A stretch of 64,000 nucleotides of DNA from Leucoraja erinacea. Taxonomy: Eukaryota. The stretch covers positions 14,508,001-14,572,000 of the forward strand of contig NC_073379.1 of assembly GCF_028641065.1 (NCBI RefSeq), given 5' to 3'. Position 1 is the first letter of the stretch, and each line of letters begins with the position of its first letter. Below, in pieces: positions 3,317-62,605 of this stretch. The position numbers and the translations under genes are program-made. The notes beneath the pieces are model-generated. The model was not told the origin of the DNA. It was given only the letters and a program-made list of their open reading frames with translations, and did not search any database.

Positions 3317-3344
3317 CTGAAGAAGGGTTTCGGCCCGAAACGTT
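3317..3344 (+). ncRNA. Minimal hammerhead ribozyme motif heading a Penelope-derived repeat
   Basis: CTGAAGA-A-GGGT(TTCG)GCCC-GAAA-CGTT: CUGANGA core, stem II, GAAA and palindromic AACGTT. Confidence 0.7.
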
Positions 3345-3976
3345 GCCTATTTCCTTCGCTCCATAGATGCTGCTGCACCCGCTGAGTTTCTCCAGCTTTT
3401 CTGTGTAACCTTCGATTCTCCCGCATCTGCAGTTCCCTCTTTAACCCCACCACAATTAGTTCCTTGAAGGGTCCTGACCCAAAACATCAACTATCCATGT
3501 TCTCCAAAGATGCTGCCAGACCCACTAGGATACTCCAGCACTTTGTGACTTTTTAAAATAAACCAGCATCTGCAGTTCCTCGTGTCTCCATCACCACCAT
3601 TTACTGTTTTTTTTATTTGAAACTACCTTGGTGTTCCATTGGTTACACTAAGCTAGCACAACCTACAACAGAAAATAATTCAACTAGGTTCTGCAGTTTC
3701 ATTGAATGTTCAAATTATTTTGCTCTGGACATCATGTTGGTTGTCTTGGAAAATGATTTAATGAAATTCTGAACTCTGGAGATTAATTGCGAGCAACTAT
3801 AGAGAGAACCTGAAAAATATGGATAGAACATTTCAGGTCAAGGCCCTTCTTCACACCGAGTCCCGACCCAAAAGGTTGCCAAAATATGATCTTCAGAGAT
3901 GCTGAATTACCCCAGCACTTTGTCTTTCTTCATAAACAAGCATCTGCAGTTTCTTACGTCTATATAGAGAACTTAC

Positions 3977-4614
3977 CTGATTGTTTCATTGCCTAACCTT
4001 TGGTAGGGTGGGCAATTCTCATCTCCTGTAAAAGCTGCTCTGTCCAGGGGGTAGATGCTGTAGTACTGAGGAGGGCAAGGGGTTGCTCCGGTAGCACCAT
4101 TTGGTGGATTAGTGCTCTGTGTGTTGTTCAACGAAGGCAAGCAGGTTGTGTTGATGGCAACAGCATCCTGCGCAGGAGATGCATATGGGGGTGGTATATA
4201 CTGGACAACTGTAGCTCCGTGGAAAGTTATAGGTTGATTAATCCCAGTAAAGACAAATGACTGACCACAAGGAGTTTGCTCAGTCTCAACAGCACTCTCA
4301 TTGATTTGTTTGCAGGTTTTGCAAGTTAGCATTCGGAACTTGCAGACAGCAATGAGAACAAACGTAACTCCCACCGAAAGTAGAATTGGCCCCAGCAGCT
4401 GCGTCCATTCCAAGTCACTGGTTCCATAATATTTAATCCAGCCCATCACGGTGAAGGTTATGCCGACCAGAACCAAAAAGACACCGGAAAATAGCAGTGT
4501 GGCCCCGGCTTTGTCCCCATCTGACACCTGGACTCTTGGAGCCTGAGACTGGCAGGGAGTCACAGAAAACACATTCACAGAGAAATCCTCCACATTGCTG
4601 CTGCACTGCTCCAT
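3977..4614 (-). CDS. TMEM174: Transmembrane protein 174, first coding exon (second exon not found, probably outside window)
   Basis: ORF MEQCSSNVEDFSVNVFSVTP...SDGDKAGATLLFSGVFL...WTQLLGPILLSVGVTF...SFVFTGINQPITFHGATVVQYIPPPY closely matches remembered vertebrate TMEM174. Canonical donor CAG|GTAAGT at 3977/3976 (phase 2). Confidence 0.95.
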
Positions 4615-4727
4615 TTGGCTCGCACAGTCTCTGCTGTGTGACCGTCCCGTGAAAGAAAAAGAGATTGGACCGGTACATAGTGTCTAAAGCACGGTGTCAT
4701 CAACAACAAAATAGTGCGTTGTGGCAA

Positions 4728-4740
4728 GTTAATGATTAAT
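4728..4740. promoter_or_regulatory. HNF1-type binding site upstream of TMEM174
   Basis: GTTAATGATTAAT matches the GTTAATNATTAAC consensus at 12/13 positions, about 115 bp upstream of the ATG in non-repeat sequence. Confidence 0.55.
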
Positions 4741-5174: not shown

Positions 5175-5350
5175 ACGCAAAATGCTGGAGTAACAGGCAG
5201 TATCTCTGTAGAGAAGGAACGGGTGATGTTTCGGATCGAGGCCCTTCTTCAGACCCGAAACGTCACCCATTCCTTCTCTCCAGGGATGCTGCCTGTCCCG
5301 CTGAGTTATTCCAGCTTTTTGTGTCTATCTTCGGTTTAAACCAGCATCTG
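5175..5350. repeat. Fold-back pair of hammerhead-bearing repeats
   Basis: A minus copy ending ...cccttcttcaga is fused to a plus copy starting gacccgaaacgtcaccc. Confidence 0.8.
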
Positions 5351-8300
5351 CAGTTTCTTCATACACTTTAGGTAGGTTTACATTTATTTCAAAACTTGAC
5401 CCTTATAGTGACTCTACCCTCAGCCTGCTGGCCCTCCTCTACACCCCCAAACGCCACAGATTTAGTTATCATCCTACCAACCTGGCCAGAGGAGCTGGTC
5501 AAGACCCCGACAGTCCTGACTCTACAGTTCATCCTGGAATCTCACGTAAACCTCTCCAAATGAGTTCCCACCTCTTTACCCACGACCCAGAGTCATAGTA
5601 TAATTTGTTTATTTCATTGGTCTGCATTGAAAGATGTTTTAATGCATTGAACATGCAAGACCCTGTCTAACTCACTTTCTTAGCTTTAAATGATTTAGGC
5701 ACCTTAGCTTAACATTCTGTTAGGCACACTAAATCAACTAATTTTAATAAAGCGTTCTATCACTTTAATATTGATTTTCAACCAAGACAGTGTTGACTAC
5801 AGCAGACAATGGACCTGTTCCACTATCAACCTCACTATCATTAATTGTTACCTGATTGAACAACATACCACAAATTACACTGCCAATAACCAATTTTAAC
5901 TTTAACAAGACTTCTTCAACCTTGGATACATGTATGACAAGTAGTTTATTAAATCAGCTGTGATCAAAACCCACATTTCACCAAAAATAAAAGAGGCAGA
6001 TTGTTTTTGTAACGATTCACTGAAAGTGAGGCAAGAATCGTGCCGTTTCAAAACAAACCAAGGGGTATTTAAAAGGCTTTTTAGATAGGCACATGGATAT
6101 GCAGAGAATGGAGGGATATGGATCACGTGCAGGCAGATGAGATTAGTGTATCTTGGCAACATGTTTGGCATAGACATTGTGGACCGAAAGGCCCATTACT
6201 GTGCTGCATTGTATGTTCTGATTATCTGCAATTAATGATTTTAAAAAGCTCAATAAATTAACCATATTTAAAATACATAGTGGAATTTAGATGAGCTATG
6301 TGTGTGAATGTAACTTATTGTGAAAAGTCTTTAAAAACTGGATTGGATGCAAAATGCCACCAAAAGCGAATCTACCTGCTAATGAAAGGCTTCAGGTGTC
6401 TGCATGGCATTCAATGTCAGTTTGAGTTAGGTACTTGAGCCCCAGGTGCCTATATCTTTCTGCCACTATTAAACATACAGTATTGATCAGAAGCTGCAAA
6501 AATATTGCAGCAGTTAAGGGAGTTCCTGTGAAAGAAAGATTTTTCTGCACATGATGGATTCTCAAGAAATTTAAATTTAAATAATTTTTAAATAGTGCAA
6601 TTGGACTGCTGTCTCCTCGTGACACAACCCATATTTTCCTTACAGGTAAATCTGCAAGGATCAAACTTTTATTATATATTAACATATTTGTCTGTGCATT
6701 AACTCTCACTCCAATGATAATGTAAATAAATAGCTTAAAATATGTTCTAACATTTGTGTCCTGAAAATCTGCTGATCCATATCCAAACATTAAAAAGGGA
6801 CTTTGAATTGCTCTGATAGTTTAATGGATAAATACATCACTTGGTGAGTTGTTGAGTTACAATGGTCCCTAGTTGGTGCTGAGTTAGCAATCTCTTAAAG
6901 GTAAAATTCATTCCAAAGTCCCATGTCAGGGACGTAAAGGGGTCTTGACCTGAAACGTCACCCATTCCTTCTCTCCAGAAATGCTGCCCTGTCCCGCTGA
7001 GTTACTCCAGCATTTTGTGTCTACCTTGTAAAAATACAAGATGGTTTCTGATCACAATAGGCAGCCTATCTTGGAAAGTGGGTACTATAAAATTTCAGGG
7101 CAATTCAAATTGGGGTCCTTCAAGTCAGTTGAGTATGAGATGAAACAAGTTATTACAATCTATTGAATTCTTATTGTGTCTGAAGAAGGGTCCTGATCCG
7201 AAATATCACCAGTCCATGTTCACCCATAGAAACTGCAAGATCCATTGACTTACTCCAACACTGTGTGTGTCTTTTGCTTGTTATGATAGATACTGTAAAA
7301 CAGTGAATTGGGCGTCTGTTTGACAATCTTGTTGATTTTCTTTTCGTGTGCGAGATATACAAGCAGATCCTGACAAGATTTACCGAAGCTTTGACAACTT
7401 TTGCATGAGTTCAATCCCTGGTGAGGACACTATGGGCCTATGTCAGATCAGTGTAAACCAGCATCTGCTGTTCCTTCTTACACTTCTATGTACTGAAGTT
7501 TGATAAGTTGCTGAAATAAAACCTTCAAAAAAACCATAGAATATGGGTTTCCCCTTCATCGCCTCATAAAACCTTCCTAATAATTCAGATCAAATAAATA
7601 GATAAAGCCACATAAGAAAGAGAAAAAAATCATTATTTGTAAAGAACGTGCCAACTCCGTACAGAGAGCACCCAGAGTTAGGATTAAACCCAGGATCACC
7701 GGCGCTGTAAGGCAGTAACTCTACCGCTGCGCCACCATGATGTATTGGAAATGGCAATTTTCTTTCAAAGCTTTCAGATCTGATTTTGATTAAAAAAAGT
7801 TGTGATTGCAATGAGCCTAATCAATAAATCCAACAGCCAACAAATTTTATCTCAGTAAAAAGTTTGTGTTACTTACTCAAAGGGAAAAGAACAAATGATT
7901 GTTCGAAGTTAGAATCAGATTTACACTGCATGATATTGAGCAAAGTAAATTGGTCTGTGGAAGGGTACCGACCCAAAATGGCACCTGTCAATTCCCGCCA
8001 TAGATGCTGCCTGACTCTGGAGTTCCACCACTACTTTGTATTTTGCTCAAGATTCCAGCATCTATAATTCCCTGTGTCTCCATAAAATGGATATTGCTCT
8101 CCGGTGAGATTGTGCAGTGAGATATTCAATAAATGACACAAAGTGCTGGAGTAACTCAGTGGGCCAGGCAGCATCTCTGGAGAACATGGATAGGTGATGT
8201 TTCGGGTACGAACCCTCCTTCAGTCACAACGAGAAAATAAAATTGAGATAGCTGAATTTACAATGGTCATAAATGAAAGGTGCAGAATAAGGCCTTTCGG

Positions 8301-14228: not shown

Positions 14229-14390
14229 GTTTGACTGCATTCCACAATTCGCTACCATTTACCATTATGTATATAAGGTACAACATAAATGGAAGTGCTT
14301 TTCTTATTTGTTATTATTTAATTGTCCAATCTTGCAAAGTGGTATTCTGTCCCCTTCACATTGGCACACGGTTTAAATACTTCCACTTAC

Positions 14391-15038
14391 CTGTTACAAT
14401 ATTACATGTGCCTGAGGTGCATGGCTCGTGATCATTTATAGGTGGACTTTCTTCATCGGCACCTGATGCCACCTTCCTTTTGACGTGGGCCATTAACAAG
14501 AAGCAAATACCAATGAATGTCACTGCCGGGCCCATGATTTGTAAAAACAGCAGTTTGCACTTCTCGTTCTCATTAATTCTCGTTGGGAAGTTGAGTGCTT
14601 GGCCGTCCACGGTGCCAGTGCAGGTGACAGCCCAAACTCCAATCGTGGTCAGCAGCATCCCACTCAAGCAAAACAGGACACCAAAGATGAGGAAATGGGC
14701 AAAGGATGTCTGTTCGCCACAAGAGCAATAGCACCGTTGGTCAGCTGAGTATTCCAGTCGGGTCAAATTAACCAGGCTTCTCGATCTTGAAAGCAGGATG
14801 AATATCAATGCAAAGCCGCATAAACTGGGTCCAGTGGCCTTTAGGATCATGCTGCAGGAAACTCCACCACAGTCACATGCTTGTAACCCAAAGGTGGTCA
14901 TGACAATTGCAGGAGATAGAAATGAAGCAACACATACGAGTACAAAGACTCCTGTTCTGCTAGCGTTTCCAGTTCCCACTGTTATCTCCAACAATGCAAC
15001 TTCTCGGAAGTGCAGTGATGTTTTTCCTATGGCTGAAC
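14391..15038 (-). CDS. TMEM171: TMEM171 main coding exon (start codon uncertain)
   Basis: FGLQAC...ILKATGP...SRSR...CGE...FAHFLIFGVLF.LSGML...FLQIMGP...AHVKRK matches TMEM171. Acceptor ttcacag|G at 15038, donor ACAG|GTAAGT at 14391. Lies between FCHO2 and TMEM174 as expected. Confidence 0.9.
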
Positions 15039-15154
15039 CTGTGAAGATAATTACCGTGCATTTCATTTAGCACCGTAGAGTCATACAGCACAAAAAACAG
15101 GCTCTTCGGCCCAACCAAAATGCCTCATCGAGGCGAGACCAACCATATCCCCCT

Positions 15155-17032: not shown

Positions 17033-17477
17033 CCAATGAAGCCAATTCTCTATCGGATTGGCTAGCTCAACATGAAAAATAGCAAATGCATTTCAGCATG
17101 GGCATCATTATTTGTTACCAACATGAGAATTTGTTAACATAATTAGAAAAAATGTGGAAACCCTCAGCTGGTTGACCAGGTAGTATCTGTGCAATGTCGT
17201 AGAATGACCCTTTCAAGTTAAGGGCTTCTCATCTAATCTAAGCATTGATTCTCTTTCTATGGTAGACAAAAATGGTGGAGAAACTCAGCAGGTGCGGCAG
17301 CATCTATGGAGCGAAGGAAATAGGGAACGTTTCGGGCCAAAACCCTTCTCCAGACTGATGCAGGGTGGAGGGGCGGGAAGAAGAAAGGAAGAGGAGGAGC
17401 CAGAGGGCTGAGGGAGAGCTGAGAAGGGGAGGAGACAGCAATGGCTCCTCTCTTTCAATGTTTGCACCTATTGACTG

Positions 17478-17755: not shown

Positions 17756-18868
17756 ACTGCAATGATAATTGAAAATATTGAGTCCCAAAGTTGCAGGAAT
17801 ACAGTGACTTTGACATGGTTAAGGTATTTACTAGACAACATAATTTTAGGCTTTTTACCCAAATTTGCAAGTTCAAATCTCACTGTGGAATCCGGGTAAA
17901 ATCATGCAATTTAATCAACCTTGATTTTAAAGAAAAACTGCAATCAGAGGTGGTAAGCACACAGCTATTGTATTGTATAAAAACCTATCTGCTTCATTAA
18001 TGTCCTTTAGCAAAGAAAGCTGATGTCTTTAACCAGTGAGTCCAGACTCACTATCCTGTCAGGGGTTATGAGGGCAGGAGAATGGGGTTGAGAGGGAGAG
18101 ATAGATCAACCATGATGGATTGGCGGAGTAGACGGTGGACTGAAAGGTCTATTTCTGCTCCTATGACTTATGAACCTGACTGACTCCAGACAGTAGTTGC
18201 CAGGGTTCCGTCGACTTCCACATCCCATAAATGAATTGAAAAAATCCTTCGTCTCCCACCAAAGTTCATTTGTAATGCCCCTTGAAATTAAAGGAATAAC
18301 CCAAGTCATTTTTCGAATCCAGGAACTACAGATGCTGGTTTACAAAAAAAGACAAAGTGCTGGAGTAACTCAGGGGGTCAGGCAGCATCTCTGGAGAACA
18401 TGGATAGGTGACGCTTCGGGTCGGGACCCTTCTTCAGACAGATTGAGGGGGATGAACCTGGAAGAGAGGAGGAGCAGGACAAACCATGGCAGGTTACAGG
18501 TGAACACAGGCCGGGGGGGGGGGGGGGGGGGGGGGGTCGGATAGGTAGATAGTTGGACAAAGGCCAGAGAGGAAAAAACAGAAGGCAGAAACAAAGAGCT
18601 GAAAATACTTGTTTGTACCAAAGATAAGACACAAAGCGCTGGAGCAACTCAGCAGGTCAGGCAGCATCTCTGGAGAAAAAGGAAGAGGTGACATATCGGG
18701 TCAGGACAGAGATACTGCCTGACCTGCTGAGTTACTCCAGCACTTTGTATCTAGCATGAAAAAACGGAAGATGTGAGACAAAAGGGATTGAAGAGTTGCG
18801 CATTGTGAGGCCAGAGGAAGGAATGTAGGTGGAGGTGGGAAATAGGTGGTAGACCAAGTAGGGGAGAA

Positions 18869-21821: not shown

Positions 21822-22495
21822 GCCTGGAGGTGTTCGGCGAAACGATCGCCAAGCCTACGCTTGGTCTCACTGATGTAGAGCAGCTGACATCTAGAGCAGC
21901 AGATGCAATAGGTGAAGTTGGAGGAGGTGCAGATGAATCTCTGCTGCACCTGGAAAGACTGCTTGGGTCAAGGGGGGAGGTAAAGCGACAAGTGTAACAT
22001 TTCTTGCGGTTGCAAGGGAAAGTGCCCGGAGAGGGGGTGGTTCGGGAAGGAAGGGGTGAATTGGCCAGGGACTTACAAAGGGAGCAGTCTCTGCGGAAAG
22101 CAGACAAGGGAGGAGATTGGAAGATGTGGCAAGTGGTGGGATCACGTTGGAGGTGGCGAAAATATCGGAGGATTGTATGTGACGGCTGGTAGGGTGGAAG
22201 GTGAGGACAAGGATGACTCTGCCCTTGTTATGAGTGGGGGGGATGGGGAGTGAGAGCAGAGTCACGGGGTATAGAAGAGACCCTGGTGAGAGCCTTGTCT
22301 ATAGTAGAAGAGGGGAGGGGGTTCCCTAAAAAATGAGGACATCTCCGATGCCCTGGTGTGGAACACTTCACCCTGGGTGCAGATGCGGCGTAGACGGAGG
22401 AATTGGGAGTAGGGGATGAAGTCCTTACAGGTGCAGGGTGAGAAGTGCAGTCCAGATAGCCATGGGAGTCAGTGGGTTTATAGTGGATGTCGGTC
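21822..22495 (-). mobile_element. Penelope-like element fragment (linker and GIY-YIG endonuclease), frameshifted
   Basis: PGTFPCNRKKCYTC and RFICTSSNFTYCICCSRCQLLYISETKRRLGDRFAEHL. Confidence 0.85.
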
Positions 22496-38400: not shown

Positions 38401-38832
38401 CTCCGCTTGGTTCGCAATAACCAACCTGATTCCCTCTGCAATAACCAACCTGATTCTCTCTTCTCGGTTCGCAATAACAGACCTGATCTCCCGGTGGCTT
38501 ACCACTTCAACTCCCCCACCCATTCCGAATCCGACCTTTCTCTCCTGGGCCTCCTCCATGGCCAGAGTGAGGACCACTGTAAATTGGAGGAGCAGCACCT
38601 CATATTTCGCTTGGGCAGTTTGCACCCCAGCGGTATGAACATTGACTTCTCTAATTTCAGGTAGTCCCTACTTTCTCCTCCCCTTCTCAGCTCTCCCTCA
38701 GCCCACTGGCTCCACCTCTTCATTTCTTCTTTCGCCCCCCACATCAGTCTGAAGAAGGGTTTCGACTCGAAACATTGCCTATTTCCTTCGCTCCATAGAT
38801 ACTGCCTCATCCGCTGAATTTATCCAGCATTC
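38401..38832 (+). mobile_element. Penelope-like 3' end followed by hammerhead-bearing repeat
   Basis: PDLPVAYHFNSPTHS...KLEEQHLIFRLGSLHPSGMN (GIY-YIG C-terminus), then CTGAAGAAGGGTTTCGACTCGAAAC at 38749. Confidence 0.85.
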
Positions 38833-39843
38833 TGTTTGTTGGCACTGTGCAATGGAGGTGATTGGCAAAAGAACCAAACGTGATGGGGATTTTAAAAAAA
38901 ATGTTTTTTAAACAGTGAGAGACTAGCCTCTGAAAAATACCTGCAAGGGTAGTAGTGAAGGCAGATTAAATTATAACAATCAAGGTGGAACTGGATGAGA
39001 ATAGGAGATAAAATAATCTCTCAGACAAAAGGGGGGGGGGGCAGGGGCATTGGAGCAGGACTTGGTTGATTTCTCTTGTATGGAACGGCACTGACCCTTG
39101 GGCAGGCTAATCTCGTCCTGCAGCATTCTGTAAATCTATCCTATTGATTCTCATGTCTGTGCTAAACAGGATAGCCCCAGTTAATCGAATTTCAGTGCGG
39201 TGTTGCATCTGTGAATCTATTTCGGTTTTGGTAACATCTATATGCACTCTCTATGCTTCAGATATGCATCAACTCTAACACGGTACCATGCAACCGAAGT
39301 TCATGTTAGCCACCATGCACACTGTAGCATTCTGACTGTGTTCAGCAATTCCTTATCCACTAAAATTCAATCTTGTAACACAGGAGGGAGAGATAGATCA
39401 GCCATGATTGAATGGCGGAGTAGACTTGATGGGCCGAATGACCTAATTCTGCTCCTACCACATGACAAAAAAAGTAAAAGTACAACTGAACCATAGTGAG
39501 CAGCTGTAGAGAGTTTCTGTGACAACCAAGTGTCTGTAGAGGACCATGTTATTAAGAAATGAAATGAAGTGAATTTGATATTTAAAGGAAATGGAAATGA
39601 ATGTTCTACTTTAGGTCAATAAAATTACACAAATCTCTCACTTGAATTCATATTCAAGATGGCAGTGTTAGTACTATTAACAATGTGGCAGGGACTGGAG
39701 GCTAATCCCAAATTACTTTGATTCGAATATAACTCTTTTCCATTTTCCTTCATTGCAGCAATTTAAAATTTTCTCAGGGCCACTGTTAGAAATAAACAAA
39801 GTCATTCTTGCTGCTCGATGGAAGTGCGTAACATGTTACCTAC

Positions 39844-39908: not shown

Positions 39909-40158
39909 CTGAATCAGAGTTCACAAGGAAAGCACAATAATATTGTAATATTTAAATACCTATTCCAACTTTATTATATAGTATATTATACAGAAAATTA
40001 CACCACTCCCCCCATTGCAGTGTTTTTGGTCCAACTATTCGCACACCCATTTCAATTCTAATACAATATTTTATTACGGTAAAAAGCATTAAAATATTCT
40101 CTTTCTGATAGCACAATTTTCTTAACCCGAAGATAAAATATTTGAACTTCTTAATTAC

Positions 40159-42530: not shown

Positions 42531-43112
42531 CACTAACCTTTACCATTGTCTTTCAGCCAGCACCTCCAACACATGATTCAATCTATCCTGTTCTTCACCC
42601 AATCTTAAACGTTTCTTTATGCTTGCTTTGCCCTTTATCTTTCTTTTCACCTTTAAACTTATTTTATTTCCAGCTTGTCCAAGTTCTGGTAAAATGTCAT
42701 TGACTCTATTTTTCTTTCCATAATTGGTAAGTATTTCCAGAGATTTTACTTCAAATTTCCAGTATCAACAATGTCTCCTGCCCCATCCCCTCCAACCTCC
42801 AAATAGTCACTGAACCACTGACCTGAGAAAGTCTAGGGTCACACTCAGAAATTGTACATCTTGTCATACATTTTTGCATTTCTGCCAAAAAAAACCTCAC
42901 TGGATCAGGATCAGTGAGTTGCACTAACCTCCATAAAGCGGGAGATTCCATCTCCTGATACAATGTATGACCCTGTTGACAATGTATTGACCCTGTTGTC
43001 AAGCGGGCATCTAGAAGGTGACAGCTGAATGATCAGCAAACTACTTCAGTTAAATAGACCTCATCTGAATAAAATGAAGACAAACCCCAGGCAGTTATTC
43101 CGTCTGTTGTAC

Positions 43113-43245
43113 CTGATATTTCATGATATCCACATTATAGTAGGAAGAAGATGGATTCTGTTCAGCCAGTTTCTTGAGGTAGGCAGTGAGCGTTTGCATG
43201 TTCATCCAAAAGTCCTTTGTGTTGGAGTCGCACTGTGATGGATCA
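43113..43245 (-). CDS. FCHO2: FCHO2 exon (133 nt)
   Basis: [45 protein letters not shown]; polypyrimidine acceptor, GT donor, phase 2-0. Confidence 0.95.
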
Positions 43246-43269
43246 CTGAGAGAAGAAAAATACAGCACT

Positions 43270-45050
43270 TTAGATAGGTCTGATCACCACAGGTATCTAG
43301 AGTAATTATAGATATTGAAAATATACCTGAGATGATGAAAAGACAAATAAGACAAAGGGGAGAAAGAATGGTGGTTTAACATAAAAATGATCCCAAAAAC
43401 CACCTACAGATATGTGAAAAGTAAGAAGATGGAAGGGATCGGATTTGCAATCAAAAAAGTATGTGGAGAAGCAGAGTGCATAGATAAAACAGTCAAAACC
43501 GCTGTGCATCAGTCTTTATCAAGGAAGATGATAGCAAAATCTTGTAAAAGCACAGGCAAAATACATAATGGGGTAAAAACTCACAAACAGCTTCAGAAAG
43601 GCTTGATTTGCATAAAATGAATAAATAACCTGATTCAGAGAGGATGTATCTTGTGTTGCTGAGGGATGCTGGGATAGAGATTATAGCAGGGCTTACTTCT
43701 GGTAGACAGAAGCTCCATCAGAACAAAAGCACAATCTTTCATTCCTCTCCAGGAGGGCAGGCAGATGATTGGAGAAAGACAAATGCAACACACTTGTTCA
43801 ATAAGGCGTGGAATGGCATTCCAGGCAACTGGAAGCTCATCAATTTAATCTCAATGATGCAAACAGTTTAGAAGTAATTATCTTGGAAAAGTCCAAGGCA
43901 CTTGAAAAAGAACGTTAAGAAAGGATAATAAGTAATGATGTGTTAAAGATAAAGCATGTCCGACTGGACCTGACTGAATTTCTTGATAAAATAACAAAAA
44001 AGACTGTTGAGGTGAAGTAGTAGATGTTATCTCTAGAGTTTCTGAAGGCATTTGGCAAAGCAACATAAAATGTGAAGTCCTTGGAATAGAGGAGTCAAGT
44101 AAACTTGAATAAAAATGGGCTAAAGGACAGAAATCTGCAAATTGTAGGAAATTAATGATTTTATAGATTGGATAAAGACAGTGATGTTGTGCTGGAATTT
44201 AGAGATACTGCCCTTTTTACTTACATATAAATGACATGAAATTATTAATTTGCAGACAAAACCAAACCTGGAGAGGTGGTAAACAATGAGAAGCAGACTG
44301 TAAGTCCTCAGAATGGACAGAGAAGTATGAAGTGATTAAAATCATCAGGCAAAATGAGGAGAGACAGTACTGGTTTAATGGCAGTTCTAAAATAATGCGG
44401 GAACAAGCGTATCTGGGTTTAAATGTGCATAAATCTTTGCATAAGTTTGAAGAAGGGTCTCGACCCGAAACGTCACCTATTCCTTCACTCCATAGACGCT
44501 GCCTCACCCGCTGAGTTTCTCCAGCATTTTTATCTACCATAAATCTTTGACAAGGTGATCAGTTACATTGATTGGATCTGCGCTTTATAAGCAGAGGCTT
44601 GGGGTACAAAAGCATATAGGTTATGTTGAATCTTTATAAAACACTGATCATGCTATAAATGGAATACTAGGTCCAGGTCCAAGAGTGTGCGCATAAAAGA
44701 TTTCCAGGAATGAAGGGTTTGGCCAGTTTGGGGGAAAATTGGATTGCTTTCTTCAGAGCAACAAAAGTTGAAAGGAAATTTGACAGATCACAAGTCATTT
44801 ATGTAGGCATATTATGTATAATTTGTTTATACTAACAAATGGGTCAAGAATCTTGAGGACACAATTTAAAAAGATACAAGGTAAGATGGTGATCTGGAAT
44901 TCACTGCCTATAAAGGGTGGTGGCAAACAACAAATCGAAAATTTGTGAAACTTGTTGAAATTAAAAACATTATCGTTATTGGTTATGGGGATATTGAGGA
45001 GTTTTAGACAGTTCAGAAAGACGACTGTGGGCAGATCAAATCCTACTCTA
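43270..45050 (+). mobile_element. Highly decayed CR1-type LINE with a nested hammerhead-type repeat (44446-44538)
   Basis: Remnant ORF2 motifs in collinear order. Confidence 0.6.
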
Positions 45051-45815
45051 ATTTCTGCTGACAAATAATGAGTAGCAGACAGAAGAGGCAGTGTAAAATG
45101 TCCAGGGGCTGGCATATATGCTATCACCATATGAAGGGCTTATTGAGAAAGAGGGAGAAATTATTATGGGAATATCGAATAAGATACAGCAAGAATGAAA
45201 ACCTGAACTGGAAGTATTGGACTATGCCCACCAGTGTAACTCAAATTGAAGTCTGTTCTCTACAATTAGACTATTGTATAACAAGCAATGATGATAATAC
45301 ATACAAAGTAATAAATAGGTGACATTGAAATTTCAAACTCAATTTTAATAAAAGGTGCAGAGAAGAAACCCAGTGAGTCTCCAGGATTTAGTTTGGTTCA
45401 TAATTCAATGCAAGATCCTCCAATAATTTAGAATACCATCGTATACACAAGAATATTTAAAATGACATTTAATTTGGAATTAAAACAAATAAAAACTGCA
45501 GATGGTGGAAATTTGAAATAAAAAGTAGTTGTTTCAGGTCAATAGAAGTACAAGGCACAAAGTGCTGGAGTAACTCAGCAAGTCAGGCAGCATCGCTAGA
45601 GAACAAGGATTGGTGACATTTCAGATCGGGACACTTCTTCTGACTTTAGCAGGTGAGAATCTCCCTATTGAGCCAGGTTGGCACTTAATTTCACACGATC
45701 TAATTCTTATCCATAACAAACTGCATATAATAATCTGTTTACTCAACAGATGAAAATAAACTCCCATATTTTAATTTATTTTTCATTTCCAGGGCACACA
45801 GTATGAAGAGATTAC

Positions 45816-45971
45816 CTATACACAAGCTGTGCATTTGGAAGAATTTGCTCAAATTTGCTGGTGTTCCGTATCCTGAAGCTTAGCACAGCGGGTGATGGAT
45901 TGCTGGTAAAAACTTTAATTATGCCACTTGGAAAGGACATGGTCATATCCCCAGTGATTTTAACTATGCAC
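45816..45971 (-). CDS. FCHO2: FCHO2 exon (156 nt)
   Basis: [51 protein letters not shown]; phase 2-2. Confidence 0.96.
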
Positions 45972-46342
45972 CTGCAGAAGCACAAAATTAAACAGCAACT
46001 GATTTTATAGTTATCAAAGAATATTAAACATAATTTATTTTAAACAGAAACCAATCATTTAATTTCTAATAATTTAGGCTTTTAACTGGCATACATAGTG
46101 ATACCGCACCGAAGGCAGTGAGATTCATATCATAACTATTCACTCAGTAAATAAAATCCTCGCATTACCTTCATATCTCCCATCCAATATGTTATATTTG
46201 TGGTCAATAGTCCTTCAGTCAATCACTGCTGGAATAGCTTCCCTCTATTTAGACTATCTAAATAACATGATTTAAAACAAAAGCACAAAGTGCTGGTGTA
46301 ACTCAGCATGTCCAGTAGCATCTTTGGAGGACATGGATAGGT

Positions 46343-46370
46343 GACGTTTCGGGTCTGGACCCATCTTCAG
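46343..46370 (-). ncRNA. Minimal hammerhead ribozyme motif
   Basis: Minus strand CTGAAGA-T-GGGTC-CA-GACCC-GAAA-CGTC: intact core with a GUC triplet. Confidence 0.72.
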
Positions 46371-47653
46371 ACTCTGATCCCACCAAAAAATTCTCGGGAA
46401 ACGTCTTCCAGAGAAGCTGCCTGATCCACTGAGTCATTCCAGCACTTTTTGTTTCTGTTTTGTAAACCAGCATCCGCAGCTCCTTGTGTCTAACTCATGA
46501 TCTTCTCGTCCTTCATTAAGTTGCCTCTCAACCTCCTCGACTCCATGGAGAACAATCCTAGTTTCTTGATCCATTCTAGCAACTCTTTTTTGCTCGCTCT
46601 CTGGGATCTTTGCACCCTTCCTGACCACAATTGAACACAATATTCCACTTGTGACCCGATTACAGAACCAACTTTAATTCCTAGCTTTTGTACACACTGA
46701 CAACTGGGAAGCAGCTGCTGAAGACCGGGGGAGGTGGTGAAAGGACCTCAAGGTGGGTATGATGCACCACAACAAAACCCTGGTGGCTAGGCGTCAACAG
46801 CAACAGCAGCACACTCCCCAATCCAATGGCCAGAGACAACTTCACCTGTGGAAGCTATGGGAGGGTATGCTTGTGAAGGATAGGCCGAGTCAGACACAGC
46901 AGGAAATCCAACCAGAGACGAAACATTCCCTTCTCCAAGCAGGACAAAGTCAAAGTCGCACCATCATCTCTCGCAAATGGGCGGATGGCAACTACTGTAC
47001 ACCATGCCTTTATTTATAAATCTCATATACTTTAACTGTTCTCCCACTACATCCTGCCACATTCACAAGTTTATACACATGAATGCCAGTCAATCTTTGG
47101 CTTCCTTAACCCAAGAATATTTAAACCAAACAATGTTAATAGTTTCTAATCGCAAAGCACTCAGAAATAAAGGAATAAATAGACGTGCAAGAATGATAAC
47201 AATTCAAGAATGCTGATCACAAAATAGGTAGGCTCAGTTTAAGAATAGAAAGAATAAAGAGACAAAGATAAGAGTGCAGGATTGGCGAGACACAAAGTTC
47301 AAAAAGATAGAGAAGGACCAAATTAACTGTGCAGACAAGTTAGCCAAGAGGTAAACAGATCATGTAACATCACTAAAAATAATTGGGGTTCTTGTGCTCT
47401 ACAACCTCTCTTGTGCTTTTGACAGCAACAACCGTCCTCTCCTCCTCCAATACCTCAGATCCGTCATTCACTCAATGCGTTTACCCTTGTTTGACTCTTT
47501 TTTTTTTTAACTGAAAGATCCACCATGAAAACAGGCCCTTCAGCCAACAACGTCCATGCTGCCCATCGATCACCTATTCACACTGGTTCTACTTTATCGC
47601 ACGGTCACATCCATTCTCTGCACACTTGGGGCAATCTCTAGCTGCCAATTAAC

Positions 47654-49400: not shown

Positions 49401-50759
49401 TTTTGTGAGCCATCTTCGTTAGTTTTCATTAAGAATTTCATGCCCTGTCTTCTGCTCCATCCCTTTCCTGCAACATCTCAAACTGAAATAGCCCATTCAC
49501 ATCTACTAAGCCCTGAACTGTGGTTCCAGGCTCATTCTAAGAACCATGTAATTCCACTACCATTATGTCACCTTCCTTCACCATTACCTGAAGGTCACCT
49601 GCTTCAATACCTTTTGATACTCTAACACCTTCTTAGGCACCCTCCATAAAGCTTAGATTATTTAAAGTTCATATAATCTATTTACTCCGATTTACATATC
49701 ATCTCCCCTCACTAATGCATGTCACTTCACTTTGTTCCTCTTATCTCAGCTTCAAAAGTCTTATCCTTTCTCTAAATCTTTGGATGGCTTGCCTCACCTT
49801 ACATCTTAAACCTGTATTATAATGACTGATGCTGAGACATTGGTGCATCAGATCTACTTAAGGAAATATGCATTAAAATAGGATCGAAATATTTCCACCA
49901 GATTTAGTGGACTACAAAGATAGAGCTATGAATTAAAAAAAATTATTGTGGGTATGCTTAGAACAAAATGTTCATATCAGCAACACAAAACAACGTTTAG
50001 TTATTTTCTCCTATAATGAAAATAGAAAATGCTGCAAACATAAATTAGTCCGGCAGAATCGGTGGAAGGAGTAACAGTGTTAACATTTCAAGATGGAGAA
50101 CATTCATCAGAAAGAGAGAAAACAAGTTAATTTTAAATTGCAGAAAAAGTGGTCAGCAAAGAATAAGAACAAGTTCTCTGAAAGATAAGGCCAGGGTTGC
50201 TGTGGGGATAGGGGATAGATCGAGTCATTCTGTTGATAGGTTAATTGGGGCATTTGGTGAATGAGAGAGCATAAACAAAGAATGTAAAAACCTCAAAATG
50301 GAGAGCTGTAGGAAATGCCTAATAGATCAAGTGGTTCTATTGGAGTGAGAAAAAAGGTAATATGACAACAGAACTTTTATTCAGCTGTATTTTGCACCTT
50401 GTACGGTATCCCTATCAGAGGTATTTTCTTTATTCTATCTATTCCTTCTCTGCAATTTAAAATTAACCTGTGCTCTCTTTCCCAATTCTCTAACCTGAAT
50501 TATTAACGTCATTGGTCATTTCACAGCCTGACTATGAGTATTTTGATTTTTTCTAGAGTATTTTGATTTTTTCTAATTTTATAACAGATTTCCAGCATTT
50601 GCATATCTTTAAAATAATTATTTATTTCACTTTGCACAAAGAGGTTTGTCCCCAATTTTCTTCCCCTTCCATCTGATAAAAACAGTGTGCTGGTGTAACT
50701 CAGCTGGTCAGGTAGCATCTATGGAGGTAATGGCTAGATGACATTTCAGATATGTAGAG

Positions 50760-52237
50760 AAGAGTAGACTAGGCAACTGGATCTCCGAACACCTGCGTTC
50801 GGCCCGCCAAGGACTGCTGGATGTCCCGCTCGCTACTCATTTGCTCCTTGCGCAGATCAAGTCCTTGGCCTCACTACCAATATAGAGGCTGGCTTCCAAC
50901 GTGCCCTGAAAACTGGTGTTGCTCTCATTGATCTGTCATCAGTTTATGACACCTTGTGGAGACATGGTCTGTTGCTGAAAGCTTCCGAAATCTTGAAGTA
51001 CCAAACCACCATGTGTGCCCTCGCATCCATCCTCAGCAACCGTAGATTTAGTATCTCGCTTGGGAACCACACCAGCTCTGTCAGCACCTTGAATGATGGT
51101 CTCCCCCAGGGCTCTGTCCTAGCTCCCCTACTCTTCAACATCTATGTGAGTGACATGCCAACTACCTCGTCCAGGAAGTTTGCGTATGCAGATGACCTTG
51201 CCCTTGCCTACCAGGGAGCTGCCCTTGAGGATTACAGCAGAGTGCTCACCCAAGGGGATGGAGGAGTACTTCACCTTCTGGCGACTTCACCCCACCCCAA
51301 CACATCTAAGACAACTGTCACTGCCTTTCATCTCAGCAATCGGCTCGCCAATGCAAAGCACCGAGTATCCTTTTGTGTTAAACCGGTGAAGGATGAAGAA
51401 TTCCCCAAGTACCTCGGAGTCACCCTGGATCATACCCTCACCTATCGTGAACACCTGAAGAATGTGGCTAATAAACTGAAAGCCAGAGTCAACATCATCA
51501 GGAAACTTGCAGTCAACAGCTGGGGATCCAATGCACACATCCTCCGTACCGCAAGCTTAGCCCTAGTCTACTCAACAGCCGAGTTTTGCTGAACTACTTA
51601 GGCTAATAGCTGCCACACCAAACGAGTTGACACTGTTCTTAACTCTGCAATGCGGGTCATCACAGGAACGCTTAAGTCAACACCTTTGCAGTGGCTCCCA
51701 GTCCTCTCTCATATCGCTCCTCTCAGCATACGCAGAAGGGAGAGGATGTTGAAAGATTGGTGCCCCATTGAGGCTAACCCTGACCTTCCCATCCATCCTG
51801 ATTTGAACAATCTGCCCAACATTCGCCTGAAGTCTCGCAAACCCTTCTGGTCTTCAGTCAAATCCCTGGAAGACTTTGACTCTAAGACCAAGTGGCGCAG
51901 AGCCTGGAAAGATGCCAACACCAACAACGGAAAGGCCATCACAGACCCCACAGTGAAACCACCAGGATTTGACCTCCATCACAAGCAATGGCTAACCCTG
52001 AACAGAATCCGCACCCTCCATGCAAGAACAGCCCATCACCTGCATGTGGGGGATGACAGACAGCCCTGCTTGCGACTGCGAACATCCAGACCAGACCGCC
52101 CCACACAGCGTGAATGACTGCTCACTGAGGCTTTTCCCCTGGAGGCATCAAAGCCATCCACCCAGTAACTGATGCTGTCCTGACCTGGATGTCTACTCTT
52201 GACCTACAACTTAAGGCTATGCACGCCATACACAAGA
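50760..52237 (+). mobile_element. Vingi/Ingi-like (I group) non-LTR retrotransposon, 5'-truncated and disrupted
   Basis: GLPQGSVLAPLLFNIY, FAYADDLAL, PKYLGVTLD, SWGSNAHILRTASLALVYSTAEFC, MRVITGTLKSTPLQWLPVLSHIAP. Confidence 0.75.
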
Positions 52238-52239
52238 AG

Positions 52240-52810
52240 TCCCTTTCTCATTCCCATACTGTCCTTTCTATTCTGGGCTGCCGCTGCCAGAGTTAGGCCA
52301 CACATAAACTGGAGGAACACCAGCTCATATTCCATTTAGGTAGCTCACAACCCAACAGTTTGAACACTGAATTCTCTAATTTTAAGTAATACCTCCTCAC
52401 TCTCTGTCTTTCCTACGCCTCTCCCCCTGCTGTGCACCCACTTCTCTCACTATCTTGCCCCTCTTTACCCCCCCCCCCCCCCCCACCCATATCCCCTTCC
52501 AACTATATTTCTCCCTCTGGCTTCACATCTAACTCGTTTTCTTTCCTTATCTGACATCTTTTTCTCTCTTTCATCTCTCGCCTGTCATTCACTCCATCCA
52601 TCTGCCAAACACCCCTCCCCTTCATCAATTGCCAGGATTTGACCCACCCACACCTTTCTTATAGATTTCACCCTCCTCCTACAATCAATCTGAAGAAGTT
52701 GTCCCGACCCCGAAACATCACCTATTCATCCCCTCCACAGATACTTCCTAACTGAGTTCCTCCAGCACCTTGTGTTTTGTTACAGCATCTGTAGATCCTT
52801 GTATCTCTTT
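52240..52810 (+). mobile_element. Penelope-like 3' end plus degenerate hammerhead repeat
   Basis: KLEEHQLIFHLGSSQPNSLN remnant, pyrimidine tract, then CTGAAGAAG...CGACCCCGAAAC at 52690. Confidence 0.75.
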
Positions 52811-53468
52811 TGACAATGCTGACTTCAGCTGCCTATGATTCTCAAACTCAATTTGTATAGGTGTACTTCACATATTGGTAAGGATTATAGTAGTCCAATT
52901 GTGACCTTACAATGTACTAATTTGCCTGCTCCAGCAGGAACCAGCTGACAGAAATAAGCTGTAAAGAACTTTGTTTATCTTCTTCCTTCCTGGTTTAAAA
53001 CATCAAAACAGACCGTATTGCCTAATTCTGCCCGAACAAAGCCAGGCAACTCAACAGCAAGAGATGAATCATTGACCTTGCTCACATGCACTCTGAAACG
53101 TTTCTTTACTTATTGGTGACGGGGGAGTAAATATTTAACAGTGTACTAATTTCATCAATTACAAGTCTGAAAGATTCTTTAACAAAAAAAGTTATCATTT
53201 GTATTTCAATATACAATATGTGGTAAACAAGAGACTAAATTGCATAAACATTAACACTTCAATTTAATTATAATTGCACCATTTTAAAAAAATCATACTC
53301 AATCCAATATTTTAAATTTTACAATATCCAATTCTTATTGGCCTAAGCTTGTTTTCAAGATACATTTGCACTTTTAACAGAAATACAATCATTTTTATTT
53401 AAATAATCAATTTTCGAGAGATATATGACTAAATAAATGAGTTTAGGTACAGCAGATGTTCCACATAC

Positions 53469-53580
53469 TTTGATGGGTCTGCTCCCTTGAAGTAAGCATT
53501 AACTGATTCAGTAAACGCAGTTGCAACTGGTAAGGAATCTTGTGACCCAAGAGTTATAGGACTGGGTCCACGAGAAGTAC
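53469..53580 (-). CDS. FCHO2: FCHO2 exon (112 nt), start of mu-homology domain
   Basis: [38 protein letters not shown]; actag|GT...AA|gtatgt, phase 1-2. Confidence 0.96.
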
Positions 53581-54284
53581 CTAGTAGATTAAAAAAAGGA
53601 AAATAAGTAAGAACTACATATCCATTTAATGTAATTATCATTGTGTTTTAAGCTGTTTCCTTATTTAAATCCGTGAAAATCTTAGCAATATTTTTAAAAA
53701 GATCAAAAATTTTATTTTAAAATTATCACTAGAAGGCAGAAAGTATCTGCAAAGTGGAATGCAACAGATTTTTTTTTAACCAGTAATGCACACATTTAAG
53801 ATGCATATTGCAACTAGTTTCCAGCATTTTAATAACGCAACCCATCAATCCTTAAGACTTGTCCTATAAACAATCCCCTGTAATTTGCTACTGATTAAAT
53901 GATTCCGAGTCAGATCTATGAATGTAATTTGATACATACTGATTTATTCATTTAATACTTAAAAAATAGAATAAAATTTTAAAATCTGCATATTTTGAAT
54001 GCACATTCATTTCTCTGTGTACAATATCTTGATAGGACATAAAAGTTGATGTATTTACACCCTGCAAGAATATTGTTGAATACTCAATGTCTAAATATAC
54101 TTGGTACAAACTGTTTAAAGTTATTCCTCTGATATCTGGAATACAAACTTGTTAAAAGAAATCATAAACAATCCAAAAAAATAAAATGCTGCAGGTACTG
54201 CGAAGATTAAATAAAAATGTCAGAATTACTTTATCAAAAATGTTTAATAAAAAAAAATGTATGTTTTTCAAAAAACAATCTCAT

Positions 54285-58570: not shown

Positions 58571-58974
58571 CAGTTCAGAAAATACTATACATGAATACAC
58601 AGCTCCACACTCTTTGATTTTTTTAATAACATACACTAAAATTATAACCTATTGATATGGAGAAGATTTCAGAAACAAGCAAAGATGAGAAGGATCTGGT
58701 TTGACATTAATTAAAACTTTATGAACCTATGTTCTAAAAGAAATTGTAGGATTTACATGAACTTTTCATGAGAGAATTTTTAAAAACCTAACCAGTATAA
58801 TAAAGCAAGAATATTTCAACATATGCATCAGTATGTACAAAGCAAATAGTTGAGTGTAAAAACAATGTATTCATTATGTTTCACCTATGTTGTTGCTGGA
58901 AAGACTAAAGGACCACTCATAAAACATTTAAAAAATCCAAAAAACTGGTTCATGACCACCGTCAAGTACTATAC

Positions 58975-59034
58975 CTGCAGGCGTCTCACTGCGTTTCTCA
59001 AATGAAGGAAGCTTCCCAGTGAACACATCACCAT
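58975..59034 (-). CDS. FCHO2: FCHO2 60-nt symmetric exon (probably alternative)
   Basis: attag|AT GGT GAT...GCA G|gtatag encodes DGDVFTGKLPSFEKRSETPA, phase 1-1, in frame with the next exon. Resembles a remembered FCHO2/SGIP1-family linker insert. Confidence 0.8.
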
Positions 59035-60554
59035 CTAATATGATAAACACACAAAGATATAGACAAAGACCATGAGGCAATGAGCAGATATTAAAGCAAA
59101 GGTCCCGTGCAGCAAAATGCTAAAGCCGTTTAATTTTAATTGTGCAAAATTCAAATGTTGTTTTAAGAATAACAAATCCAAATAACCTTATCTTCTTAAT
59201 GCTATGTGCACTTATAACTCATTTGTACCAGGATTTTCACCCTTGTATTCAGCTTGTGTCTATTTTGTTTTGCAGATTGAAAATGCTACTGATCTCCAGC
59301 CACTGTATTTAACAGTGCTATAATCTGTAGGTTTAAACAATGCAATATATGAAGTTCATGTCTTTTATATTCAAATTAATACCAATTATGCCAAATTCAG
59401 TCCCTAATGCCAAATGAATGGTGTACTTATGTTAGTTTCATGACTGATAGTTTCATGACATAAATTATTCCAATCAAACGTTATCGAAATAAGAATCATT
59501 GTAATTTTGCACAATTAACCTATTTCATATAGGAAAGAAGACACAGCAGAGAAAGCTTGTAGTAAATTACAAAGGCACCACAATTAAAATGCTGTAGTTA
59601 CAGTCTACAACATTTCTAAAGCATCAGTCTTGTCACAAGGATTTGCTTATATTATAAAAGTCAGTTTAAAAACCAAATCATAATACAAGGCAGCATCAAG
59701 GTCAAAAGGGAAGGCAAATGCATGAATTAAACTAAAGCTATCATAAGCTAAAACAAAAAAATCCATTAATAATAAATATTTGTAATGCATATAAAATCTA
59801 AATTAGGCAAGTACATATATTAAAAAGCAAACTAGGAATTAAGGGATTGCAGTAAAATGTGCGATTATACTGACAGTTAAAAAAAATTTCAGATGCACAA
59901 TAAAGGGCTAGGCTCAAAAATAATTTCAAAGCCCATCAGAACAACATTAAAATAATGATCTTACAAAACCAGAATGTGTATTAATAATGCCCATCACTAA
60001 CACCATGGAAAAAAACAATGTGAAGCAAATCAAACAATTCCTAGCAGTTGGCAGAATAGAGCACTACAAAACAATTTGAGTCATGGTCTGAAGATGACAA
60101 AAGCTGGTAAATATATATTTTTTCATTTTATAAAAAAATGGGAATCTCCTTCACTAATTATAATTACATAAACAACACTAGCAGCCAAAAACCAAGAGGG
60201 TGTGATATGGTAACTAAACCTATTACAGTCATTTGAAACAATAAAAGCTCCAATTTGCACAAAATTCACTTTGAAATAATTCCTTTCCTATGGGATAAGA
60301 TTGAATTGTAATCCTGTGTTTTCTCACCTAGATGTAAAGGACACTTACAAAAAAAAACAAGATCTCTACAACAACAATGAATTAGACACAAAGTGTTGGA
60401 GTAACTCAGCTGCTATGGCAAGCATATTTGGAGAACATGGATAAGTGACACTTTGAGTCGGGGTCTTCTTCAGAATACAGTTCCTTGTTTCTTCAACAAT
60501 GAAATAGAGTAAGTCCTGTCCCTCCCTTAGTCGGGCTGATGAGGGCAGAATCAT

Positions 60555-62605
60555 AGGCGTGGGCTAGATGGATTTCAGCAAATCCCGTGATAAGATTCCA
60601 CAGGGTGGGCTGCCCTGATAGGTTATATCACATGGGATTCAATGAGAACTAGCTAATTAGACACATGACTGGTTTCATAGTAGGAAGCAGAGTGTGGTGA
60701 AGGAGGTTGGGTTTTTTTTGGTCTTGAGGTCTGTGATGAGTGATGTACCTCAGAAATCGGCGCTGGTCCATTGCTATTTGTCTTCTATTTCAGCAATTTG
60801 GATAAGAATGTACAATGCATGAACATAATTTTGTAGATGACACTAAAAGAAGTATCGTAGACAATGCTGTTGATTATATAAATTTACAACAGGATTTTGA
60901 TCAACTGGCCAAGTGGACAGAGAAATGGCTAATGCAGTTGAATTTAGATAAGTGTGTGCTATTGCATTTGGGAAGTCAAACTGGGGCAGGAACTTCACAG
61001 TGAATGGAAAGCCCTGGGTGGTTTTGTAGAACAGAAGGATCTAGGAGTACAGTTACATAATGCCCTGAAGGTGGCATCACAGACAGGTTGGGTAGTGAGG
61101 AAGGCTTTTGGAATGCTGCCCCCCCATCAAATCAGGATTTATTTTTCTATATGTTACCGTTGTACATGATGTTAATGAAATAGTACTTGGAGTATTGTGT
61201 TCAGTTTTGGCTGCCTGCTACATGGGCACATGGAACCAATGCAGATGGGGCATCTGGCATTGGTATGCATAAGTTGGGCAAAAGGGCCTGTTTCCATGCT
61301 GTATGACCATATGAAAAATGTCATTAAGTTTACGTGGATATCCCTAGGACTTGAGGTCCTGAGGGAAAAGTTGGGCAGAATAGGACTTTATTCCTTGGCG
61401 CACAAGAGGCTGAGGGTGATCTTATTGAGTTGTTTAAAATCATGAGGGGAATAGACTTTGTTGAGTTTTTAAGAGGGAATTGCAGATGCTGGAGAATCGA
61501 AGGTTACACAGAAAAGCTGGAGAAACTCAGCAGGTGCAGCAGCATCTATGGAGCGAAGGAAATAGGCAACGTTTCGGGCCGAAACCCTTCTTCAGACTGA
61601 TCGGGGGTGGGGGTAGGTGGGGACAATAATAACAACTTTGTTGAGTGTTGTGGGCAGCTCAACACCGACAACACTAAGGAATTAGTAGTGGACTTTAGAA
61701 GGAGAGGAACACCCCTATGCCATCTCCATCAAGGGTGTGGATGTGCAGTGTACCAAATAGTAGAAGTACCTTGGAGTTTACCTGGACAGTAAATTGGACT
61801 GGTCCAGCTGAGGCTCTGTACAAGAAGGGACAGAGCCGGCTGTACTTTTTGAGAAGGCTCCAATCCTTCAATGTCTGCAGTAATTCTACCAATCAGTGGT
61901 GGCCAGTGTCACCTTCTTCACTGTCATGTGCTGGGGCAGCAGGACGAAGGCCGCAGACGTCAACAGATTAACAAGCTCATCAGGAAGGCTGGCTCCATGT
62001 TGGAGGCGGAGTTGGATCATGGGAGGTGGACGGTGAGGAGCATCTTGGACAATGCTGCTCACCCCCTCCATGACACACTGGTCAACCTAAGGAATACCTT
62101 CAGCAACAGACTGATTCCACCAAGATGCAGTATAGAAAACCACAGGAGATCCTTTCCCCCCTCTGGCTATCAAACTACAACTCCTCTTCCTCCTTCCCTT
62201 TCTACAATCCTTTCCACTCATCACTTTAATGTCATGTTTCTTGTATCTGGTTGTATTTTATGATTATTGGCAGACCAATTTCCCTCCTGGGATAAAGATT
62301 TATCGTATCGTAACCAGGTGAATGCCCCAGGGTAGGGGTATCAAAAATTATAGGGTATCGTTTTAAGATGAGAGGGAAAAGATTAAGTAGGAAACTGAGG
62401 GGCAACATTTTGGAATGAGCTGCCCAAGGAAGTAGTTGAGGTAGATAGAATAACAATGTTTGAAAGACATTTGGATAGATACATAGGTAGGATAGCTTAA
62501 GAGAGAGATGGGCCACATTCAGGCAAATGGGATACCTTGGATGGGGCATCTTGGTGGCATGGAAGGTGAGACAAAAGGCCTGTTTCTGTTCTGTAAAACT
62601 CTATG
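60555..62605 (+). mobile_element. Old CR1 LINE interrupted by a hammerhead repeat and a Rex/L2-like fragment (61630-62310)
   Basis: FVDDTK...LQQDFDQLAKWTEKWLMQLNLDKC; LNTDNTKELVVDFRR; YKKGQSRLYFLRRL. Confidence 0.7.
61568..61595 (-). ncRNA. Minimal hammerhead ribozyme motif
   Basis: Minus strand CTGAAGAAGGGTTTCGGCCCGAAACGTT, identical to 3317-3344. Confidence 0.7.

Follow-up and report, generated by a model that had tools for sequence, protein, structure and literature searches.

A short repeat scattered through a 64,000-nucleotide stretch of the genome of the skate Leucoraja erinacea (contig NC_073379.1, positions 14,508,001 to 14,572,000; hereafter the window, in which coordinates count from the first letter) is, as judged by sequence comparison, the 3' part of the pseudo-long terminal repeat (pLTR) of several related Neptune-like Penelope families, whose protein combines a reverse transcriptase (RT) with a GIY-YIG endonuclease. 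The repeat carries a minimal hammerhead ribozyme (min-HHR) motif that matches the published consensus and for which cleavage is only predicted. Its short copies are probably run-off cDNAs of uncut RNA, inserted by the RT and endonuclease of the element, since the 5' ends of most of them lie just before the ribozyme and not at its cut site. A more specific proposal, put forward tentatively as somewhat short of probable, is that several hundred thousand insertions of 95 and 135 bp are Penelope 'strong-stop' products, reverse transcribed from the 5' pLTR and ended by run-off at a transcription start before the ribozyme. If true, the genome would be a nucleotide-resolution fossil map of that start site, of two RT start sites, and of uncut RNA as the in vivo template.

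An iterated nhmmer profile found 33 matches to this family in the window, against none in the reversed sequence that served as control, and all 22 positions at which the original prediction had placed about 20 copies lie on true members. Not all of them are the single copies they had been taken for: the sites at 590, 3850, 5250 and 46343 are head-to-head inverted pairs (as is 18707), and the core at 5250 is on the minus strand. The description of the repeat as headed by a minimal hammerhead is right as to the motif, but most copies in the window are decayed or headless, and a strict min-HHR descriptor (core, stem II, paired 15.2/16.2 and UH) is matched by four of the 33 (3317+, 7180+, 46370- and 61595-), among them the two minus-strand copies at 46343 and 61568 that had been called intact. 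The agreement with the published min-HHR consensus extends over the CUGANGA...GAAA...UH core, the extra base before stem II, the G10.1-C11.1 pair and the palindromic CG. For stem II, 4 bp closed by a 4-nt loop are a better fit than the 5 bp and 2-nt loop first proposed; stem III is indeed reduced to a palindrome and has no loop, positions 15.2/16.2 being CG in 98 of 189 copies and most of the others showing CpG decay. The caution that stem I is very short was justified, as it measures 2 bp, and these are conserved in 136 of 144 and in 117 of 118 aligned copies (alignment ends favour matches). An Rfam scan of the window returned no hammerhead family even at E ≤ 5, which is no evidence against a hammerhead because the motif falls below those models.

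The predicted linkage to Penelope open reading frames (ORFs) is borne out both by endonuclease ends beside the repeats at 38749 and 52690 and by longer copies reached through a genome search with ORF fragments from the window. At one locus (L015) an open frame of 601 aa encodes RT, a Cys-rich linker and a GIY-YIG-like end; a pyrimidine-rich untranslated region (UTR) and then the repeat come after it. Over 590 columns this frame shares 46% identity with a protein that has Pfam matches to RVT_1 and GIY-YIG; scanned directly against Pfam, it gave a sub-threshold RVT_1 match only and no GIY-YIG match. The nearest named relatives of the element protein come from sharks and rays, at 59–67% identity, and the viral contigs searched held no relative of the ORF. 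The L015 linker contains CNRKKCYTC, and we presume Neptune over Nematis from the linker motif and from the vertebrate distribution, not from an RT tree. In 8 of 20 loci chosen by the 5' part of the ORF (three of which, L058, L059 and L064, are possibly one duplicated locus) a partial tandem runs in the order GIY-YIG end, pyrimidine UTR, min-HHR, body, tail and next ORF, identifying the repeat as part of a pseudo-LTR and placing the min-HHR in pLTRs that flank the ORF on either side. Within the pLTR a body of about 60 nt leads to a first 3' stop site (at about +90, counting C3 as 0, as throughout), a 36-nt tail and a second stop site (at about +130), and the presumed main ORF begins some 165 nt after C3. 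The tail is present in 22 of 60 young loci, some of them sampled twice, and an endonuclease end lies within 500 nt in 22 of 180 copies from a fixed-step sample, all five sequence groups included. In copies that had been selected for the tail motif, body and tail are joined by an invariant 8-bp helix, a candidate for a protein-binding structure. In the window, GIY-YIG C-termini do lie upstream of the repeats at 38749 and 52690 (38458-38661, E 2e-31; 52225-52401, E 2e-7), as had been noticed, but the repeat does not follow them directly, being about 90 and 290 nt away beyond a pyrimidine-rich UTR.

Some further observations concern the ORF itself. By eye, an ATG in the repeat body opens a frame of about 40 codons that runs through the tail and overlaps the presumed start of the main ORF (L063, about 1325-1450, and similar loci), where a splice-donor-like AAG|GTATG is also seen. 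Proteins named as a kinase-domain protein (P0003), a chitinase-domain protein (P0049) and an XIAP isoform (P0106) strongly match the Penelope ORF, which suggests that transposon sequence may have been absorbed into their gene models.

Copies templated by cut RNA would start at +28. Among 30 consecutive young copies, chosen by the sequence 3' of the cut, not one begins at that position; 18 begin at -6..+10 and the remaining 12 farther upstream. A fixed-step sample of 100 body-anchored copies includes 41 that start at -6..+1, an upper figure that counts some copies carrying the UTR of another subfamily and both arms of pairs, and two that start at +26..+30; a further 20 begin upstream of -6, and the other 37 at other points within the repeat (+2..+60). 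About half of the youngest copies end sharply 2–3 nt before C3. Exact counts over the whole genome tell of the same boundary: of 17,430 exact cores, 7,218 keep the six upstream bases where the decay rate predicts 15,427, and in 3,179 the match breaks off precisely at -2. Both an independent contig set and RNA reads likewise show, in their best-supported rows, loose ends of low agreement that peak before -3 and -2.

These ends might instead reflect ordinary 5' truncation, an unlikely alternative in which all copies derive from the 3' pLTR of long transcripts and an RNA 5' end plays no part, RT tending to drop off past the hairpin or ahead of the pyrimidine tract, or the end of the cDNA annealing to a GT in the target. 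Truncated and solo ends are standard for such elements (PMC4209133, PMC8557442), the 37 ends within the repeat fit this explanation, and several target duplications end in G or GT, that is, in microhomology. The step is sharp, however: about 53% of young copies reaching C3 drop out over the next 6 nt, yet those that get past the boundary (12 of 30) continue for at least 17 nt, 8 of them for at least 189 nt. Moreover, the stop lies beyond stem II and not at its 3' foot, and the first ribozyme bases are copied twice at 4 of 30 junctions, as expected if RT had run off the RNA end and re-primed. Two other causes of the -3/-2 boundary were considered and rejected, namely cleavage at upstream AUC or GUC triplets, where on inspection stems I and III cannot pair, and a spliced exon 1, since short copies share no constant upstream sequence.

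The boundary sits on TCAGT, which we take to be initiator-like from the consensus. In the run-off mechanism transcription would start at this motif just before the ribozyme, the element protein would bind near the RNA 5' end, and RT would start at either of two internal sites. From the 5' pLTR it would reach the end of the RNA and run off after some 95 or 135 nt, yielding the short copies, whereas from the 3' pLTR it would read back into the ORF and yield long 5'-truncated copies. Head-to-head pairs would form from two cDNAs or by fold-back, joined at self-complementary parts of ribozyme and body, where the joints of such pairs are in fact found. Several components of this scheme have precedents: inverted and head-to-head copies of Penelope-like elements, and an initiator-like TCACT in a rotifer pLTR (PMC3846280); an internal promoter in Penelope (PMC2377424); and an anole protein that starts RT internally near the RNA 5' end, at two sites flanking the tail, with uncut RNA as its main template and ribozyme cleavage dispensable for insertion (PMC11167929).

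As for the ribozyme itself, stem II had been said to keep its pairing while its loop varies, a suggestion of covariation that closer analysis does not bear out. The stem is near-invariant, with one-sided wobble changes and CpG decay only in 191 copies, and RNAalifold on 22 copies found a two-sided change in none of 10 predicted pairs. Double changes at pair 10.2/11.2 were sought genome-wide and occur at 746 sites; by hand count, 71 of the first 100 are an A-A mismatch and 15 still pair. The catalytic G12 is changed in 30% of copies, like CpG sites (18–31%) and unlike non-CpG G (4–9%); the decay of inserted copies is hence neutral. The subfamilies differ from one another at 21 of 86 columns, all of them outside the 11 core columns, and the five changes that fall inside the ribozyme all fit the fold or keep pairing. 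This invariance of the core may be taken as weak evidence of selection on master elements. The ribozyme is likely kept functional in master elements alone, by weak, dimer- or protein-assisted cleavage, and the inserted copies are decaying passengers. Dimer cleavage is also the subject of Lunse et al. (2016), as cited in PMC6765202. In vitro, no cleavage was seen for lone min-HHRs and weak cleavage for dimers (PMC4209133), and the ribozyme of the anole element required the protein of that element (PMC11167929).

The A-A mismatch at pair 10.2/11.2 was also considered as the mark of a master element with a broken stem, an idea rejected because 6 of 7 such loci share flanks and the mismatch is a passenger in another repeat. 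A head-to-head pLTR pair bearing it has spread to several hundred copies inside that repeat, with both flanks common to the six loci (L253, L258, L266-L268 and L271); many of the listed sites cluster at the distal end of contig C1.

A number of observations weigh against the run-off reading and against a functional ribozyme. Predicted minimum-energy folds form no hammerhead, either as monomer or as dimer, and stem I is absent from them. The test of the core columns (p = 0.037) is weak, since body segments are equally invariant. The TCAG at the boundary also resembles a splice acceptor, and a transcription start at this point is a proposed one; in Drosophila virilis Penelope, transcription begins about 120 nt upstream of the ribozyme and an intron separates the two (PMC2377424, PMC4209133). 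A search for an extra, cap-derived G at the junctions gave 44 of 100 against 36.5% expected after CpG loss (p = 0.07). Finally, one polyA fragmented RNA run from a related species has no common start or end in the repeat among the listed ends, a kind of library that shows such ends poorly. In this run the depth over the repeat is 2,437 and 2,262 (mean) on the two strands, which fits passive transcription of many copies.

The family is as abundant as had been predicted. Exact patterns were counted over the whole 2.19-Gb genome, with reversed-pattern controls all at zero, and gave 71,293 intact hammerhead cores, 10,482 copies of a 53-mer spanning the whole core and 30,464 of the adjoining 51-mer. 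A profile sample drew 120 stretches of 10 kb at fixed steps from 22 large contigs, small contigs being left out, and its 462 matches extrapolate to about 0.84 million genome-wide (bootstrap 0.73–0.97 million), or 2.9% of bases; these are matches and not insertions, and 21 of the 462 come from one minisatellite. On the strong-stop proposal, somewhat short of probable as it is, about 3% of the genome would as a by-product consist of ribozyme fragments the size of short interspersed nuclear elements (SINEs), the largest hammerhead-motif load in the literature searched. Copies are dispersed or head-to-head and rarely tandem: the 441 non-minisatellite matches include 66 head-to-head pairs (132 matches), and a script found target duplications of 9–14 bp in 29 of 134 copies. 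Two local arrangements stand apart, the minisatellite (L130:4825-6003) of about 43-bp units from the repeat body without ribozyme, and a stretch (L112:5020-5195) in which three tandem copies of the first 42 repeat bases precede a full body, the sole clear tandem of ribozyme heads in the sample.

Another alternative, which is the original prediction without its retrozyme part, is an independent SINE-like family, whose short copies would hold an internal promoter and RT start signals, be transcribed on their own and serve again as templates for the Penelope protein. In its favour, ORF-linked copies are far fewer than short ones (the 22 of 180 near an endonuclease end), and the short ones have a defined 5' end and target duplications; they would also hold the internal promoter if it resembles that of Penelope (PMC2377424), and derivatives of pLTRs have been proposed (bioRxiv 10.64898/2026.07.22.740005). 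Still, this explanation appears improbable: ORF-linked members occur in all five sequence groups (a coarse grouping, not a phylogeny), no short-only lineage was seen bar the pair carried inside another repeat, short copies lose bases upstream of the presumed start, and the polyA run from the related species contains no strand-biased RNA.

A retrozyme that spreads through cleavage, circular RNA and rolling circle, its intronic copies cutting host pre-mRNAs such as that of FCHO2, is less probable again, to the point of being hardly credible. The 71,293 intact cores, two of which lie sense to the muHD gene of the window, would suit it, as would the weak in vitro cleavage of min-HHR dimers (PMC4209133). 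However, only five pairs of close same-strand neighbours both carrying the ribozyme occur among the 441 matches, copies do not start at the cut site (0 of 30; 2 of 100), G12 decays neutrally, matches in the muHD gene region divide into five sense and five antisense, and lone min-HHRs did not cleave (PMC4209133). With all five groups ORF-linked, tandems rare, starts off the cut site and no separate SINE found, the proposal of a SINE- or retrozyme-like Penelope derivative gives way to that of probable run-off copies of the Penelope pLTR itself.

The members of the family in the window, with an internal ORF fragment, are as follows.

3317..3444, plus strand: young short copy with core, body and 36-nt tail, starting at C3 without the 5' strand of stem I.
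3465..3590, plus strand: older copy, with the 3317 insertion at its UTR/ribozyme junction.
61468..61629, minus strand: young copy comprising about 30 nt of UTR, an intact min-HHR at 61595-61568, the body and the tail; oriented in sense with the muHD gene and presumably inside it.
46281..46372, minus strand: copy with an intact min-HHR (46370-46343), intronic and sense to the muHD gene.
38458..38838, plus strand: 5'-truncated Penelope-like element with GIY-YIG C-terminus (38458-38661), pyrimidine UTR and repeat (38746-38838), G16.2 lost.
50679..52777, plus strand: old Penelope element with GIY-YIG C-terminus (52225-52401), UTR and decayed repeat (52689-52777).
21826..22495, minus strand: internal Penelope ORF fragment with RT thumb, Cys-rich linker and GIY-YIG start, frameshifted.
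17261..17441, minus strand: copy that retains some 85 nt of element UTR and has a changed A6 in the core.
504..675: head-to-head pair, 581-504 (minus) and 591-675 (plus).
3815..3926: head-to-head pair, 3855-3815 (minus) and 3859-3926 (plus).
5175..5326: head-to-head pair, 5254-5175 (minus) and 5249-5326 (plus), joined by GAC microhomology in stem II.
18627..18752: head-to-head pair, both arms headless.
7178..7270, plus strand: copy matching the strict descriptor only via G-U and CpG-decayed U-A pairs.
2032+, 6934+, 7953+, 8225-, 9972+, 16129+, 18439-, 26291+: scattered decayed copies.
27970+, 28992+, 44445+, 45644-, 50110-, 54580+, 60474-: more scattered decayed copies.

The 3317 copy is flanked by a 14-bp target duplication (3303-3316 / 3445-3458) and nested in the older 3465 copy; as a young nested insertion that lacks the 5' strand of its own stem I, it would make a poor assay substrate. 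Its target ends in ATTA, recalling the ATT preference reported for the anole element (window 3303-3590). The copy at 44445+ has a 12-bp target duplication, and the 46370- copy stands head-to-head with a headless arm at 46390-46454(+). The old element at 50679..52777 includes an inverted arm (50751-50679, minus) and a weak GIY-YIG piece (50694-50843), its GIY-YIG region being split by the RT of a long interspersed nuclear element (LINE; 50768-52117, RVT_1 50768-51589). CR1-like and other LINE fragments are also abundant in the window, which has a second short repeat family as well (e.g. at 2853, 24608, 41002, 48165 and 54377).

The host genes recognized in the window are two groups of coding frames.

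53432-53647, 45815-46039, 43098-43283, 40158-40409, 37711-37956, minus strand: five muHD exon frames.
3973-4683 and 14356-15066, minus strand: TMEM174 and TMEM171 coding frames.

The muHD gene is presumably FCHO2, a name that we take from synteny with TMEM171 and TMEM174. The statement that the intact minus-strand copies lie in sense within the FCHO2 pre-mRNA stands for 46370-, which is located between muHD exons, but for 61595- a position inside the gene is an extrapolation, as exons were mapped to 53.6 kb. Between 37.7 and 64 kb five matches are sense and five antisense to the gene. An effect of intronic copies on the FCHO2 pre-mRNA seems unlikely, since copies decay neutrally and no activity is expected from monomers.

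The arrangement of a ribozyme in a Penelope pLTR is itself already known, and what remains of interest is the copy number and the sharp 5' boundary, which the literature searched did not describe. A literature search, outside of which lay subscription papers as well as Repbase and Dfam, where the family may be catalogued, returned no paper on this family in skates or rays; nor, with subscription papers likewise outside the search, did it return one joining 'strong-stop' with Penelope pLTRs. The boundary bears on the in vivo role of the Penelope hammerhead: tens of thousands of young insertions, almost identical to each other, start before the ribozyme and almost never at the cut, which argues against cleavage, circularization and copying as the main route, and the 5' ends in the skate agree with what was found in vitro for the anole element. 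There is, moreover, a risk that in cartilaginous fish short repeats headed by a ribozyme are mis-annotated as SINEs or retrozymes.

Min-HHRs in the pLTRs of metazoan Penelope-like elements were described in 2014 by Cervera and De la Peña (PMC4209133), and the skate motif shares with them the core, the extra base, G10.1-C11.1, the palindromic CG and UH, as well as the placement in both pLTRs and the predominance of single truncated copies with some opposite-strand pairs. Its 4-bp stem II and 2-bp stem I stand at the short end of the alignment in that paper, where 2-bp stems I also occur. Two searched supplement files of the same paper contain no shark or skate term. The 71,293 intact cores of the skate compare with about 4,000 in coelacanth and about 9,000 in Xenopus in PMC4209133, obtained there with other descriptors. 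Retrozymes of the non-LTR type (bioRxiv 10.64898/2026.07.22.740005) likewise carry a type I hammerhead related to pLTRs and are non-coding; they form tandem arrays with one ribozyme per unit, in contrast to the dispersed single or head-to-head copies with target duplications of the skate.

The closest functional comparison is with Poseidon of Anolis (PAc, Frangieh et al. 2024, PMC11167929), which has the same two 3' ends with a tail between them and its ribozyme at the junction of pLTR and ORF, and whose main template is uncut RNA, as inferred here for the skate element. The two differ in that the PAc ORF starts inside stem II, whereas that of the skate apparently begins about 165 nt after C3. 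The skate protein has, unlike that of PAc, a Cys-rich linker between RT and endonuclease of the Neptune/Nematis type. The skate element also displays a sharp genomic 5' boundary, none being reported in the portions of PMC11167929 consulted. With the Neptune clade (PMC8557442) the skate element shares the RT, a Zn-finger-like linker and the C-terminal GIY-YIG, together with partial tandems, inverted 5' copies and a tail of 30–40 bp.

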